Made by a program: the position numbers and the translations under genes | Part shown: positions 6,265-11,164 of the stretch, one piece after another | How the letters are laid out: each line of letters starts with the position of its first letter | Numbering within the stretch: position 1 is the first letter of the stretch | Virus genome (UHGV): UHGV-2204638 | Strand: one strand, 5' to 3' | DNA: 36,601 bases | From: a virus | Notes under the pieces: generated by a model | What the model was told of the DNA's origin: nothing | Seen by the model: only the letters and a program-made list of their open reading frames with translations | Databases searched by the model: none

Positions 6265-7182
6265 TTATCGCTTGGCTTCGCCGCCGAGAGAGGTTGTTAA
6301 TCCGTTAATGAGAGAGATAAGCTCGCCGGTCATCAGAACAAAGTCAGCGTCGAACCTCTGAGCCGCATCCTCACGGTCGATATCGTCGTTTTGTTCTGTA
6401 ATCTCATTAGAGAACTTAAGGCGTTTGATGCTGCCGTCATCGCAAAGAACGAACTGAATGCGCTGTTGCCAGTCGATAGACAGCTTTGTAACTACTTTGC
6501 CAGCTTCCAGATGCACATGAATTTCGTCACTGACCAGAGTCTGTTTTTTAAAGCGTCCAATACCACCATCTTCAAGAATAGCTTTCAGTTCGGCTTCATC
6601 ACCCAGGCCAAAGCCAGCAGGCGCACTACCGGAACGAACCCATTCGGTCATAGTTAGTTCGATCGGCGTTTCCATAGTCAGCGGTACCACCGGGAGAGAA
6701 CCGAGAGTTTTACGAAGCAGGGCCAGTGAGTCTTCGGCACGTTTAGCGCTGGCTGCATCAACCATGATCAGACCGTCGGTGACGTTGATCCACAAACTAA
6801 CAGTCGAGTTTTTGGAGAACGCCCGAGGAAGCAGGGAGTGCAACACTTCATCACGCAGCGAATCTTTCTCAGTTTTTTTGAGGCGACGCCCCTGATCGGA
6901 TTCCAGACGCGACACACGCTTGCGCAGTTCTTCAGCAATGACAGGAGATGGCAGTATTTTTTCTTCCCGGCGAATAACCAACAACACTTGATTATTGACA
7001 GTGTGATGCAAGCGATCTGACAGCTGACCAAGTGGTGATACCCAACCGGTTTTTGCCATATCCTGGCTACCGCATGGAGTGAAGCGAAATAGTTCAAGCT
7101 GCTGTTCCAGCTCTTCCTGGTTGATGGTGAAATCGCGATTAATGCGATACACCAACATATTTTTGAAAAACGGATTGTTCAT
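6265..7182 (-). CDS. rdgC: Recombination-associated protein RdgC homolog
   Basis: 305 aa, collinear and strongly similar to E. coli RdgC as recalled ([42 protein letters not shown]). Confidence 0.9.
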
Positions 7183-7339
7183 TCTCGGTTCCTCAACGCC
7201 TCTGCACCGGCGCTAAAAAGTTAGTTTCTCCATACACAACAGAGAAGGGCACCTGCATTGGTCGGCGGCTTGCAGAGACCGCTTTCTTTTTGCCCGGGTG
7301 GATTGGGTTATGAGCCCGTCGCCCGGTGATGCCCTTTTC

Positions 7340-7401
7340 TGTTGTGCCCTGAAAAAGGCTGGCGGTTACCGGAAATACACGGGAAAACACCGGGCCGCCA
7401 G
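7340..7401 (-). terminator. Putative tL1-like intrinsic terminator after the first leftward gene
   Basis: On the minus strand a 7+4 bp GC-rich hairpin (ctggcgg..ccgg / ccgg..ccgccag, 7359..7401) is followed within 3 nt by a run of five U; it lies in the 270-bp untranslated gap before rdgC. Confidence 0.4.
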
Positions 7402-7494
7402 AACAGGGAGTTACTTGTTATTGCTTTAGCCTGCTTTTAACCACATCAGGCGCGGTGGTATCTTGGTGTTCTCACACAACCAAGAGGGATGTTT

Positions 7495-7692
7495 ATGGGC
7501 GCTTTTGATAACCAGGAAATTACGTTACCCGCATGCCCTAAGTGCGGCACTAAGACGAAGAAGAAAATCGCTTGGCTCAAGTCGAACAAAAGTTTCACTT
7601 GTCGATGTGGAGCTACTATCAATGTCAACAGCAGCCAGCTTACTTCCGAAATCAGGAAGGTTGAGGACAAGCTGAAGAAGCTCTTTAAATAG
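7495..7692 (+). CDS. Small zinc-ribbon protein (65 aa), antisense to the 3' part of the ClpX-zinc-finger gene
   Basis: AAGAGGG RBS 7 nt before the ATG at 7495; CPKCG...(15 aa)...CRCG four-cysteine motif; lysine-rich C-terminus; a plus-strand terminator follows. Confidence 0.4.
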   Translation: MGAFDNQEITLPACPKCGTKTKKKIAWLKSNKSFTCRCGATINVNSSQLTSEIRKVEDKLKKLFK

Positions 7693-7890
7693 TTTTTTAT
7701 CGACTGATATTATTTCGTTATCAGAGGTTGGTTTTTCAGCCTCTGATTTTTTAGTCAGGATCATTTTTTCTACACATGTGACTACGCATTCCGAACAGAT
7801 GGCAGGTTCGTCCTTACCACCTTTTGCGACGATCTTTATCGCTCCCAGTTCGGTTGCTCCGCAAAATGAGCATGTGAATAAATGATTCAT
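7525..7890 (-). CDS. ClpX-type zinc-finger protein, first gene of the leftward operon
   Basis: CSFCG...(16 aa)...ICSECV matches the ClpX N-terminal C4 zinc-finger pattern. ATG at 7890 has GAGG 7 nt upstream. The C-terminal half is low-complexity and overlaps the plus-strand ORF 7495..7692. Confidence 0.5.
   Translation of the reverse strand: MNHLFTCSFCGATELGAIKIVAKGGKDEPAICSECVVTCVEKMILTKKSEAEKPTSDNEIISVDKKLFKELLQLVLNLPDFGSKLAAVDIDSSSTSTSETFVRLEPSDFLLRLSAALRACG
7720..7752 (+). terminator. Rho-independent terminator, plus-strand specific
   Basis: 8-bp stem atcagagg/cctctgat with a 12-nt loop, then six T; the reverse complement has no U-run. Confidence 0.5.
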
Positions 7891-7994
7891 GTAAACCTCT
7901 ACCCCCAACCTAAGTTTTCTGTCAGCGAATCATCCGGTCATTCATACGCCACCGGCGGCTACTTCGTGGGCGTCCTGCCTGTTCGTTACTGCAA

Positions 7995-8050
7995 CATCTT
8001 TAAGTTGTAATCTAGTTGTTGTTTTGGTTGTTGTCAACAACTTTATGTGG
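7995..8050 (-). promoter_or_regulatory. Leftward early promoter (pL-like) with operator-like palindromes
   Basis: The minus strand reads TTGACA (plus 8032..8037), a 17-nt spacer, then TAGATT (plus 8009..8014). The palindrome GTTGTTG-T-CAACAAC and AAGTTGT repeats overlap the promoter. Confidence 0.4.
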
Positions 8051-8099
8051 TTTTGACGGATGTGAAATGAGGGCAAGGGTTATCAAAAAAGGAGGTTGT

Positions 8100-8204
8100 A
8101 TGGACGATGCGCTTTTAATTACACAAGGGACACTTTCCTTCCGTGATTGGAAACTCTCAAATCACGGGAGGAAGATTGAAAAGGCGGGTAATAATGGTAA
8201 CTAA
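8100..8204 (+). CDS. Candidate small ORF (34 aa) convergent on cI
   Basis: Strong AGGAGG RBS 5 nt before the ATG; contains an 8-bp hairpin ccgtgatt/aatcacgg (8133..8165). Speculative. Confidence 0.25.
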   Translation: MDDALLITQGTLSFRDWKLSNHGRKIEKAGNNGN

Positions 8205-8231
8205 ATTTCTGAAGGAAGGTTTTTTGATGCA

Positions 8232-8918
8232 TTACCAAGTGCGCGATGACCAGAATACTCTACCTATAACGTGAATTCTTGAACGCCTATCTTCGAAGGT
8301 GAGTATTTCATCTGGATACTCATCTTTATTGAAACTTCTTAGAATCAGACCACCGTCAGGTAAATTGATCAATATTTTAACTCTAAGTAATACGCCATCA
8401 CGTATGGCATAAAGATCCCCATCACGAATAGGAACCGTTTGGGAAACATCAACAGCAACAAAATCTCCATTGTTAAGTACAGGTAGTAAACTATTGCCCC
8501 AAATTTTTACGATCTTTGCATTGGAGACACATACACCAGCTTTTCTTAAATCAATCCTTCTTAGCGGGAACCAGTCTACAGTTGATTCAACTATTTCAGC
8601 CAAACATCCATTACCCGCTGATAACTCGACATCTAGGACTGGAATGTTTGCAAAAATGTCAGGATCTAATGCTGTACTTTCAGCCTCCTTTACAACAAGG
8701 TCTGGGAAAGACGCGTTATCCTCAATGCCCAATTGCAACCACTTTTGAGAAACCCCTAACACTTTAGCAATCTCTTTAATTTTCCGAGGCTGTTGAGTTT
8801 CTCCATTCTCGATTTTCGCTACGGATTGTTGTGAAAGCCCAATTTTTTCAGCTAGTTGCGCCTGACTCATTCCTGCTTTTTCTCTTTCGCTTTTTAGTCT
8901 TTCTGCCAATGTTTTCAC
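8232..8918 (-). CDS. cI: cI-type prophage repressor (HTH-XRE N-terminus, S24 LexA-like peptidase C-terminus)
   Basis: QAQLAEKIGLSQQSVAKIENG is an XRE HTH; the C-terminal domain has the autocleavage-type serine and lysine context. Uses a GTG start with GAGGGGG upstream; divergent from the cro-like gene. Confidence 0.9.
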   Translation of the reverse strand: MKTLAERLKSEREKAGMSQAQLAEKIGLSQQSVAKIENGETQQPRKIKEIAKVLGVSQKWLQLGIEDNASFPDLVVKEAESTALDPDIFANIPVLDVELSAGNGCLAEIVESTVDWFPLRRIDLRKAGVCVSNAKIVKIWGNSLLPVLNNGDFVAVDVSQTVPIRDGDLYAIRDGVLLRVKILINLPDGGLILRSFNKDEYPDEILTFEDRRSRIHVIGRVFWSSRTW

Positions 8919-8944
8919 AACATATCCCCCTCGTTTTTATTGAG

Positions 8945-9040
8945 GTTACAACTTTATGTTTTAGCTTTCCAACATCTAAAAGTTGTGATAAAAGTTGTTG
9001 TAGTTGTATAATCGAAGTTATCAACAACTTTACTACTTAC
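8945..9040. promoter_or_regulatory. OR-like operator cluster with pR-like promoter
   Basis: Repeated ACAACTTT / AAAGTTGT half-sites and AAGTTATCAACAACTT. TTGTGA (8983..8988), 18-nt spacer, TATAAT (9007..9012), then RBS and cro ATG at 9056. Confidence 0.5.
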
Positions 9041-9055
9041 AGATAGGAGAAAGCT

Positions 9056-9304
9056 ATGACACCTGAGCAATTAGCCTTATCAGAGGCAATCGCTCTGGCT
9101 GGTGGTCAATCAGAATTGGCTCGGAAGCTCACAGCCAGCAGTGGTCGTTTAGTAAAGCAACAACATGTCTGGAACTGGTTGAACAGAGAAAAGCGTCCCC
9201 CTGCAAAACTCTCGATATTTATTGAAATGACCACTGGCGTATCAAAAGAAAAATTACGTCCAGATATTTTTCAAAAGATTAAAGACTTATCAGATGGAAA
9301 GTAA
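9056..9304 (+). CDS. Cro-like HTH regulator (YdaS-type)
   Basis: 82 aa; position divergent from cI; LALSEAIALAGGQSELARKL HTH; AGGAGA RBS. Confidence 0.75.
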   Translation: MTPEQLALSEAIALAGGQSELARKLTASSGRLVKQQHVWNWLNREKRPPAKLSIFIEMTTGVSKEKLRPDIFQKIKDLSDGK

Positions 9305-9326
9305 CCACAGTTTTAAGGAGATAGCC

Positions 9327-9878
9327 GTGGGTAAGCATCACTGGAAAGTAGAAAAACAGCCTGAGTGGTACGTGAAAGCTGTCAGAAAAACTATCGCGGC
9401 GTTGCCGGGTGGTTACGCTGAAGCTGCTGACTGGCTGGATGTAACAGAGAACGCATTATTTAACCGCCTTCGTGCCGATGGCGATCAGATTTTCCCGCTG
9501 GGATTGGCAATGGTTTTGCAACGTGCTGGTGGAACTCACTTCATTGCTGACGCTGTGGCGCAGTCTGCAAATGGCGTCTTTGTGTCTCTTCCTGACGTCG
9601 AGGATGTGGACAACGCCGATATTAACAAGCGCCTGCTGGAAGTCATTGAACAGATTGGCAGTTATTCCAGACAGATTCGTTCGGCAATCGAAGACGGTGT
9701 GGTGGAACCGCATGAGAAGACAGCAATTAACGACGAGCTGTATCTCTCAATTTCGAAGCTGCAGGAGCATGCAGCACTGGTCTACAAAATCTTTTGCATT
9801 TCAGAAAGTAATGACGCCCGCGAGTGTGCAGCTCCGGGCGCCGTGGCGTGTCGTGACTGTGGAGAAACTAACGCATGA
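9327..9878 (+). CDS. YdaT-like / CII-family regulatory protein
   Basis: Position after cro; resembles Rac YdaT-type proteins (from memory). Start chosen at the GTG at 9327 with AAGGAG 7 nt upstream; the track ORF starts at the ATG at 9294 with no RBS. Confidence 0.6.
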
Positions 9879-10222: not shown

Positions 10223-11164
10223 ATGAGCACTAAATTAACCGGCTATGTATGGGATGGTTGTGCAGCGTCAGGTATGAAATTATCCAGCGTGGCAATTATG
10301 GCCCGCCTGGCTGATTTCAGTAATGACGAAGGTATGTGCTGGCCATCAATTGAAACCATTGCCCGCCAGATTGGCGCGGGGATGAGCACCGTCAGAACGG
10401 CTATCGCACGGCTGGAAGCAGAAGGCTGGTTAACGCGTAAGGCGCGTCGCCAGGGTAACCGCAATGCGTCGAATGTTTATCAGCTTAACGTTGCGAAGCT
10501 TCAGGCAGCGGCATTTTCTCAACTGTCAGATTCTGACCCGTCAAAATCTGACGCATCAAAATCTGACCCGTCAAAATTTGATGCGTCGAAATCTGGCAAA
10601 AAATCGGGTTTTCACCCGTCAGAATCTGGCGGGGATCCGTCAGTAAAATCAAAACATGATCCGTCAGATAAAAAACCTTCTCGTCCGGACGCTTCGCAAC
10701 CGGACACGCAGACGGCTGAACAGGATTTTTTAACTTGCCATCCTGATGCGGTTGTATTCAGCCCTAAAAAGCGCCAGTGGGGAACGCAGGATGATTTGAC
10801 CTGCGCACAGTGGCTCTGGAAAAAAATCATCGCCCTGTACGAGCAGGCTGCCGAATGTGACGGCGAGGTGGTTCGTCCCAAAGAACCGAACTGGACAGCC
10901 TGGGCAAACGAAATTCGCCTGATGTGTGTGCAGGATGGTCGTACTCACAAACAAATCTGCGAGATGTACAGCCGCGTCAGCCGCGATCCGTTCTGGTGCC
11001 GTAACGTGCTCAGCCCGTCGAAGCTGCGGGAAAAATGGGATGAGCTTTCCCTGCGCTTATCGCCGTCCGTCAGCACGTACACAGAAAAACGCGAAGACCC
11101 GTACTTCAAAGCCAGTTACGACAATGTGGACTACAGCCAGATCCCGGCAGGATTCAGGGGGTGA
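10223..11164 (+). CDS. Phage replication initiation protein (O-like, N-terminal wHTH)
   Basis: 313 aa; N-terminal winged-helix domain typical of phage initiators; an internal array of direct repeats encodes a low-complexity S/D/K/P linker. Confidence 0.65.
   Translation: MSTKLTGYVWDGCAASGMKLSSVAIMARLADFSNDEGMCWPSIETIARQIGAGMSTVRTAIARLEAEGWLTRKARRQGNRNASNVYQLNVAKLQAAAFSQLSDSDPSKSDASKSDPSKFDASKSGKKSGFHPSESGGDPSVKSKHDPSDKKPSRPDASQPDTQTAEQDFLTCHPDAVVFSPKKRQWGTQDDLTCAQWLWKKIIALYEQAAECDGEVVRPKEPNWTAWANEIRLMCVQDGRTHKQICEMYSRVSRDPFWCRNVLSPSKLREKWDELSLRLSPSVSTYTEKREDPYFKASYDNVDYSQIPAGFRG
10525..10670. repeat. Iteron-like direct repeats (candidate origin) inside the initiator gene
   Basis: At least six tandem copies of CCGTCA(A/G)AATCTG(A/G)C-like units, followed by an A-rich stretch. 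Confidence 0.55.

Follow-up and report, generated by a model that had tools for sequence, protein, structure and literature searches.

The interval 7340-7890 of the virus genome UHGV-2204638, a stretch of 36,601 nucleotides (nt) that we analysed at full length and call the window, lies between a pL-like promoter and the gene rdgC, and is annotated with a 121-residue open reading frame (ORF) named 'ClpX C4-type zinc finger protein'. Our analysis of this interval and of related phages and prophages suggests that it is probably the variable first-gene slot of an N-less early-left operon of the SfV/ST64B/LLS type, with two convergent and overlapping transcription units. New here are a hidden gene that overlaps the annotated one on the opposite strand, which we call ZnR, an artefactual 'C-terminal domain', the variable slot itself, and a delimited structured RNA that follows a terminator-like hairpin. 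An earlier note on this DNA had read the interval as one gene followed by a terminator. The gene and the hairpin are there, but the single gene is not, since two overlapping convergent genes occupy the interval.

A zinc-ribbon gene opposite the annotated ORF

We consider ZnR a real and autonomous gene because of the size of its family, its invariant Cys and Trp residues, the confidence of its predicted fold, its omega values, its promoter motif and its terminator (Table 1). An exhaustive HMMER search found at least 336 homologous clusters, mostly stand-alone proteins of 62-76 amino acids (aa) that align end to end, and C16, C19, W29, C38 and C40 are invariant among 19 aligned family sequences. 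The protein has the motif CPKCG...CRCG (CPxCG...CxCG among cassette members), and its AlphaFold (AF2) model, with a predicted local distance difference test score (pLDDT) of 80.6, consists of a zinc ribbon and a C-terminal helix. Foldseek searches with this model gave generic zinc ribbons only, and neither Pfam, PHROG nor PADLOC had a match for the protein; PADLOC likewise returned no defence-system match for the ZnR relatives or for the protein of the zinc-finger ORF. Assignments to the Lar restriction-alleviation proteins (PF14354, 17.7 bits vs a cut-off of 28.6) and to YnfU (NF038384, 16.9 bits vs a cut-off of 36) were rejected.

Selection on the two strands was compared by means of Nei-Gojobori (NG86) estimates of omega from nine diverged copies of the cassette. 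The ZnR frame gave values of 0.09-0.32 and the antisense (tail) frame values of 0.47-4.3, with 0.10 for the rdgC control. Purifying selection in 7495..7692 is, by these estimates, confined to the ZnR frame, and the tail read from the other strand is judged to evolve near-neutrally. Raw codon-phase counts had looked symmetric, as if both frames were coding, and this candidate was overturned by NG86, which placed the constraint in the ZnR frame alone.

Predicted expression signals lie on both sides of the gene. Its Shine-Dalgarno site is at 7482-7489, the sequence AAGAGGGA precedes the ORF, and an extended -10 motif (TGGTATCTT) lies upstream. The hairpin of the predicted terminator has no U-run on the minus strand, and its stem carries a compensatory change from A:T to G:C in one diverged locus (L003). 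Both the downstream hairpin and TGGTATCTT are kept in the diverged ZnR loci, including one outside the pL context that lies between lysis and terminase genes (L041). With a motif for its own promoter, the terminator at 7720-7752 and this last placement, the cassette has what defines a moron, namely its own promoter and terminator around a gene dispensable to the operon, the promoter being only predicted. ZnR thus resembles the phage morons in its own promoter motif, its terminator and its varied genomic contexts, and the cis-antisense pairs lambda oop/cII and P22 sar/ant in running against the operon. It differs from all of these in lying wholly within the reading frame of the flanking gene, where it is always read through in frame, and in encoding a protein whose zinc-ribbon family is uncharacterised.

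Two ZnR copies on IMG/VR contigs deviate, one (L032) with the third zinc-binding Cys changed to Tyr and the other (L038) with a 1-nt frameshift near the start; both could reflect decay or sequencing error. The TGGTATCTT-containing block at 7440..7485 occurs twice in an Ewingella-type prophage (L007, 4471-4519 and 5488-5539), and both copies lie upstream of a gene in the opposite orientation. It is also present in L001 (3571-3613) and in LLS (L047, 2366-2493), where it comes right after pL, and some relatives that lack ZnR match it in part. This block may serve antisense morons as a portable promoter; alternatively, it may be an RNA element of the pL transcript.

The tail of the annotated ORF

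In the 'ClpX zinc finger protein', the C-terminal two-thirds are best described as an antisense read-through tail. The approximately 75 residues match the C-termini of proteins whose N-terminal parts are unrelated to one another (AlpA-type helix-turn-helix (HTH), PF27050, coiled-coil and others), and they are rich in Leu, Ser and Ala, the composition that the antisense of a gene rich in Lys and Glu would give. One ZnR codon, that of Leu13 (TTA or CTA), marks the stop of the tail in every case. In every context, including the loci that were found through ZnR itself, the upstream gene enters the cassette in the sole stop-free frame of the minus strand. The consequence for annotation is general. 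The Prokaryotic Genome Annotation Pipeline (PGAP), PHROGs and metagenome gene callers list a 121-aa 'ClpX zinc finger protein' here and 'fusion' proteins of 130-231 aa in the relatives, and they miss a widespread small zinc-ribbon gene on the opposite strand, of which the common 'C-terminal domain' would be the antisense shadow.

The ClpX-type zinc finger

The N-terminal part of the ORF encodes, by profile comparison, a true C4 finger of the ClpX N-domain type, and the conserved and folded part of the protein is judged to be limited to about 45 residues. The product, which begins MNHLFTCSFCG...PAICSECVVTCVE, has cysteines at C7, C10, C32, C35 and C39, and these follow the ClpX pattern CSFCG...ICxECVxxC. 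The arrangement that defines PF06689 (CxxC, about 18-21 residues, CxxC, in a CSFCG/ICxECV context) is therefore present. A ClpX-type CxxC...CxxC module had been claimed in the earlier note, and the domain searches proposed there confirm it: Pfam PF06689 (zf-C4_ClpX) matches with E 7.6e-6 and 26.2 bits (0.8 bit short of the gathering cut-off of 27), all 7 of the 7 matches in a sequence search of the PDB are ClpX N-domains, and a profile of five homologues aligns with residues 12-48 of E. coli ClpX (hhalign probability 96.8%, E 2.5e-10, 38% identity). Precomputed PF06689 assignments are recorded for the proteins P0001, P0012 and P0013, and all detectable sequence relatives outside the phage family are ClpX N-domains. 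No AAA+ ATPase module is present in the 121-aa ORF; the NCBIfam ClpX models cover its first ~70 positions only (20.7 bits vs a cut-off of 359). The AF2 model of the whole ORF has a pLDDT of 53, with values of 40-60 in the tail.

Relative to the ClpX N-domain (PF06689; structures 1OVX and 2DS5-2DS8), the finger has the same CSFCG...ICxECVxxC including the fifth Cys, but it is stand-alone, has a 3-residue insertion between the two knuckles and is joined to the antisense-derived tail; its dimerisation and adaptor binding are only putative. Its closest counterparts are short phage 'ClpX C4-type zinc finger proteins' (phrog_5259; F1055 gp38, 118970_sal3 gp52 and P0013), which are 55-69% identical to the ORF over the aligned N-terminal region. 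F1055 and 118970_sal3, both Salmonella phages, and Salmonella genomes encode homologues of 57-66 aa, in which the similarity ends after about residue 45. In F1055 and sal3, the finger gene is likewise the first one after cI/pL and is preceded by the same leader. These short proteins differ from the ORF in length, in having their own stop codons, and in the lack of an overlapping ZnR cassette. A protein search with the N-terminal 59 aa of the ORF returned two homologues only.

The ClpX-zf annotation as such is already in the databases. The same 121-aa protein bears this PGAP name in a prophage of E. coli Nissle 1917 that is 99.2% identical to the 911-nt stretch 7150-8060 over 92% of its length; E. 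coli O68:H12 97.3 is 99.8% identical to that stretch. The occurrence of the locus in a probiotic strain makes it directly testable. The zinc-finger gene is present in 37 of 5426 E. coli genomes, and parts of the 911-nt query, which includes the leader and the downstream RNA elements, in 1493.

A variable first-gene slot downstream of pL

The window is an SfV/ST64B-type lambdoid prophage. That the ORF is the first gene after a pL-like promoter, as had been proposed, holds: a sigma-70 promoter of the form TTGACA-17-TAGATT is overlapped and flanked by copies of an oL-type operator, transcription would start near 8002, and the ORF begins 112 nt downstream of this inferred start, behind a purine-rich, Shine-Dalgarno-like GGGGGTAGAGG (7906..7896, minus strand). 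The operator repeats recur in the divergent pR/pRM region at 8948-9036 (repeat families D1, D3, D4 and D6; inverted repeats I2 and I7), which adjoins a cI-like repressor gene (8232..8918). Since the CAAC-N8-GTTG palindromes both flank the promoter and recur beside the cI-like gene, we interpret the promoter as a repressor-controlled pL.

Between the conserved leader of the pL transcript and the hairpin with its structured RNA, the relatives have unrelated genes or none. The slot is occupied by orf33 of 98 aa in SfV, by an HTH protein of 122 aa in mEp460, and by AlpA-type or PF27050-type proteins in other prophages; LLS, ST64B, cdtI and phiNP have no annotated gene there, with about 0.5-1 kb of sequence free of annotated genes. 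Because the slot is variable or empty while the flanking RNA elements are kept, these elements are not partners of the zinc-finger protein. The zinc-finger gene is thus, on comparative grounds, an exchangeable accessory gene and not a substitute for N, and the implication in the earlier note that its protein fills the N role does not hold.

The other statements made in that note about N and nut agree with our searches. The protein has no arginine-rich motif, no N-family match is found among the PHROGs matches, and the early operons contain no arginine-rich small ORF and no recognisable N-like antiterminator elsewhere; ORFs resembling arginine-rich motifs occur only antisense within structural genes. 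No boxA (YGCTCTTWA, at most 1 mismatch) is found on the transcribed strand downstream of pL (7890-8005, which covers the space between pL and the gene) or of pR, boxB not having been scanned alone. The order pL, leader, first gene and terminator-like hairpin is like that of N/nutL/tL1 in lambda, but the arginine-rich motif, boxA and an N homologue are lacking, and relatives have other genes, or none, in the slot. HK022 is likewise an N-less lambdoid with a conserved RNA segment, put, just downstream of pL. Casjens and colleagues have described LLS as having no N homologue and speculated on put-like antitermination (PMC12315714). A covariance model built from six put sequences (model R1, positive controls HK022 putL at 98.9 bits and putR at 55.1 bits, with a filters-off run over 6900-9400) matched neither the pL leader nor, above noise, any other part of the window or of 12 related loci. 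Put-like antitermination in this phage group is therefore not supported by the covariance test.

The leader itself, of about 61-66 nt, is kept across phages that differ in their repressors and immunity regions and that have different first genes or none. Its fold is no better than that of shuffled sequences (z-score +1.7), and no second copy was found in the window. Two interpretations were tried and rejected: a likeness to put seen by eye (CGAAC..GGC and a 37-nt second stem), which the covariance model did not bear out, and a 7-aa leader peptide (MNDRMIR), whose ATG is lost in ST64B. The leader may serve as a recombination linker or as a factor-binding site.

The terminator-like hairpin and the structured RNA

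A terminator-like hairpin with a U-run had also been reported between the gene and rdgC, comparable to tL1, and comparison with relatives upholds this. Of 13 diverged relatives, 12 have an equivalent GC-rich hairpin with CTTTTT in the corresponding position. Taken alone, the hairpin at 7401..7359 is modestly above chance (folding free energy, dG, -18.3 kcal/mol; z -2.0; 9 of 200 shuffles fold equally well), and a simple terminator scan missed it because of its long loop. It has the GC-rich stem-loop followed by a U-tract that characterises intrinsic terminators, together with a 17-nt loop, a short U-run and a low z-score; with its activity only predicted, we regard it as a plausible intrinsic terminator.

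Directly after it comes a conserved structured RNA of about 115 nt, which precedes rdgC here and yfdP in relatives. In 13 diverged sequences, 97.2% of the pair cells are standard, compared with 43-56% in slid controls, and 4 pairs show compensatory changes. One U:G pair is invariant and five other positions have variable G:U/U:G pairs, which assigns the RNA to the pL strand. Its P3 hairpin lies within 14 nt (CGGGCUCAUAACCC) that are identical to the anticodon arm of the E. coli initiator tRNA, and that form part of the invariant core. This core is found in 62 phage records, including SfV, SfII, SfIV, mEp460, cdtI, 2H10 and many Stx2c phages. Rfam gave no match at gathering scores in the whole window and two noise matches (E 5-9) at E<=10 in 7100-8250, ARAGORN found no transfer RNA (tRNA) or transfer-messenger RNA in the window, and the yfdP region of CPS-53 in E. 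coli K-12 is without the structured RNA, so that what is known of the K-12 transcriptome gives no guidance on it. A 65-aa ORF over the structured RNA (7193..7390, minus strand) was rejected as coding; relatives have large indels in the middle of it while the stems covary.

LLS (L047, 1960-2600) and ST64B (L043, 1871-2690) have two tandem units made up of a terminator-like hairpin, a U-run and a long CACAAC...GTTGTG stem, situated within 0.6-0.8 kb of early-left leader that has no genes. The arrangement in the window appears, from this comparison, to be a deletion or recombinant that joined the hairpin of unit 1 to the structured RNA of unit 2. Two small features lie further downstream. A GC-rich hairpin at 7196..7213 (minus strand), just 5' of the rdgC Shine-Dalgarno site, recurs at the same position in relatives, before rdgC or yfdP, with a different sequence (GCGCCGGTGCAGAGGCGT vs TGGCGGTGGCAGCCGCCA). 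Behind the long stem, a conserved (A/G)TGGAGAAAC begins short ORFs (6-12 codons) whose ends lie close to the Shine-Dalgarno site of rdgC or yfdP.

Proposed mechanism

In the explanation that we favour, the first transcription unit would run from pL on the minus strand through a small accessory early gene whose conserved folded part is the ~45-residue ClpX-type finger. The second, on the plus strand, would be a self-contained, moron-like cassette made up of the extended -10 motif, the Shine-Dalgarno site, the ZnR ORF and the intrinsic terminator. Having no stop codon of its own, the zinc-finger ORF runs on across the cassette in the sole stop-free frame of the minus strand, and would thereby gain a tail of ~75 residues whose sequence is dictated by ZnR. 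The pL transcript would next meet the conserved terminator-like hairpin, which is probably a partial terminator of pL transcripts, then the three-helix RNA and then rdgC. The repressed prophage probably expresses ZnR. Since the resulting mRNA would be complementary to the first gene over its 3' half, expression from pL and that of ZnR should antagonise each other.

Upon induction, pL would make a free zinc finger as its first product. SspB and substrates such as lambda O and MuA dock on the dimeric N-domain of ClpX, and degradation that depends on this domain is inhibited in vitro by isolated copies of it (the zinc-binding domain, ZBD). Since the N-domain is a docking site and its isolated form is inhibitory, a free copy could act as a decoy or a poison subunit, interfering early after induction with the docking of adaptors and substrates or with the dimerisation of the ZBD. 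We put this role of the finger forward tentatively, as one possibility among others. If it were true, a phage that makes a free ClpX N-domain ahead of all other early products would have a simple means of redirecting ClpXP, and the domain would represent a new class of anti-protease factors.

A wider reading would join the RNA elements to the ZnR cassette, though we consider it unlikely in its complete form. It holds that RNA elements not described before control the early-left operons of N-less lambdoids (SfV, ST64B, LLS, mEp460, cdtI and several Stx2/Stx2c phages), namely the invariant leader and the three-helix RNA of ~115 nt with its copy of the initiator-tRNA anticodon arm, and that in-frame translation of the slot gene couples the firing of pL to the silencing of ZnR. 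The three-helix RNA could then be a protein-independent device for read-through or processing, a decoy for factors directed to the anticodon arm (e.g., VapC toxins that cleave tRNA-fMet, or interactions at the 30S P-site or with initiation factor 3), or an element of translational control of the first conserved gene. As for the translation part, the in-frame crossing of the antisense ZnR cassette by any slot gene may be a selected silencing of a gene expressed in the lysogen. How N-less and put-less lambdoids pass their early terminators is a question raised for LLS (PMC12315714), and the conserved leader and structured RNA are concrete candidates for an answer.

Alternative readings

Several observations weigh against the explanation just given. 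All of the ~7 independent contexts show an in-frame fusion of the upstream gene to the antisense-ZnR frame (with ClpX-zf, AlpA, PF27050, 143-aa, 231-aa, 142-aa and 138-aa proteins as N-terminal parts), and none of 30 distinct Leu/Ser codon states is TTA, CTA or TCA, the codons that would put a stop into that frame (P ~0.0125, weakly significant). Together they hint that the read-through or the tail itself is selected, which an accidental tail leaves unexplained. In addition, the Pfam score of the finger falls slightly below the gathering threshold; its function as a ClpX decoy, plausible as it is, is derived solely from domain homology and from the in vitro inhibition by the isolated ZBD; and the ZnR promoter, both terminators and the translation of the tail are predictions. 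The same fusions and missing codons are what would be expected of true dual coding, with the tail a functional C-terminal module common to many first-gene proteins and both strands under selection over 7525..7692: real N-terminal upstream genes continue in the stop-free frame at all loci found through ZnR, and the tail stop is fixed at the Leu13 codon. But most of the tail omega values (0.5-1, of a range of 0.47-4.3) are those expected from shared second codon positions alone, AF2 confidence in the tail is only 40-60, its composition is what the antisense of a Lys/Glu-rich gene predicts, and short ClpX-zf homologues exist without it, so that we regard dual coding as improbable. That the 121-aa ORF is instead a genuine two-domain protein, with ZnR as its chance shadow, is scarcely credible. 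Gene callers and PGAP do annotate the minus-strand ORF only and phrog_20296 spans its full length, but ZnR belongs to a large stand-alone family with four invariant Cys and a Trp, has a confident fold under strong purifying selection, and is equipped with a conserved promoter motif, a Shine-Dalgarno site and a terminator; judged on these features, the two-domain reading is effectively refuted.

As to function, the finger could be a generic C4 finger that binds nucleic acid or protein and serves as an early regulator unrelated to ClpX biology. This is conceivable, with chances well below even: only 38% of the 37 aligned residues are identical in ClpX, and relatives often have HTH proteins that bind DNA, of AlpA or MerR type, in their slots, but outside the phage family all detectable sequence relatives are ClpX N-domains. 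A functional analogue of N, acting through the conserved leader as an antiterminator past the downstream hairpin, is far less probable still. The gene does come first after pL, downstream of that leader and ahead of the hairpin, and no other antiterminator is recognisable in the early operons. However, leader, hairpin and structured RNA are also found where the first gene is unrelated or absent, so that read-through cannot depend on the zinc-finger protein, and the protein lacks an arginine-rich motif and has a gene far rarer among E. coli genomes (37 of 5426) than parts of the 911-nt query (1493). For the hairpin, a doubtful but possible view is that it is not primarily a terminator but the 5' element of a composite regulatory RNA with 7347..7234, which could serve read-through independent of N and put, processing or stability, or mimic a tRNA anticodon arm. 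It fits this view that hairpin and U-tract are contiguous with the structured RNA in 12 of 13 relatives, that LLS and ST64B have tandem hairpin-plus-long-stem units, that on inspection of the sequence the U-tract is complementary to GAAAAGG of the P1 5' arm, and that a 17-nt loop with five U only is atypical of a strong terminator. On the other side, terminators are recognised by just such a GC-rich stem with a U-run behind it, no known mechanism lets a downstream RNA act on an upstream terminator, and no Rfam family corresponds to the composite, whose role is only putative.

Feature coordinates and further observations

The features discussed above are collected in Table 1.

Table 1. Positions of predicted and annotated features in the window (-, strand of the pL transcript; +, opposite strand).
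Feature	Position	Strand	Details
ZnR, 65-aa zinc-ribbon gene, unannotated	7495..7692	+	alternative ATG at 7489 gives 67 aa
Extended -10 motif of ZnR (predicted), TGGTATCTT	7456..7464	+	30-39 nt ahead of the ATG; unchanged in 8 of the 9 diverged ZnR loci
Intrinsic terminator of ZnR (predicted)	7720..7752	+	12-bp stem, 4-nt loop, T6; dG -17.6, z -5.1; inside the ClpX-zf ORF
Conserved block with two small hairpins and ZnR promoter/5' untranslated region (putative)	7440..7485	both	also in relatives without ZnR
121-aa ORF, PGAP name 'ClpX C4-type zinc finger protein', phrog_20296	7525..7890	-	ATG at 7890
ClpX N-domain-type C4 zinc finger, residues 4-42	7765..7881	-	sole part common to the 57-66-aa homologues
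C-terminal tail, ~residues 46-121	7525..7755	-	crosses the reverse complement of the ZnR terminator, antisense through the ZnR frame
pL-like sigma-70 promoter TTGACA-17-TAGATT	8009..8037	-	10 of 12 consensus positions matched
oL-type operator copies CAAC-N8-GTTG	7992-8011, 8035-8054, plus 8014-8034 (span 7992..8054)	both	overlap or flank the pL-like promoter
Conserved ~61-66-nt 5' leader of the pL transcript	7920..7985	-	88-98% identity in ST64B, SfV, SfII, mEp460, F1055 and others
tL1-like terminator-like hairpin with CC and U5	7352..7401	-	stem 7401..7359, 7+4 bp, 17-nt loop; U5 at 7356..7352
Conserved ~115-nt structured RNA	7234..7347	-	19-bp basal stem P1, 5-bp P2, 3-bp P3 hairpin (7317..7305), variable hairpin P4
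rdgC, next early-left gene	6265..7182	-	PF04381, E 6e-116

Two further observations concern other parts of the window. In the early-right operon, cro overlaps with the next gene, leaving no room for nutR or putR. Tandem short repeats are found at 10464..10650 (plus strand) inside a replication-initiator-like ORF (10223..11164, protein ...SDPSKSDASKSDPSKFDASKS...), and they recall the origin iterons within lambda O. The same initiator-gene repeats occur in the CPS-53 remnant of E. coli K-12, upstream of yfdP (L058, 5248-5604).

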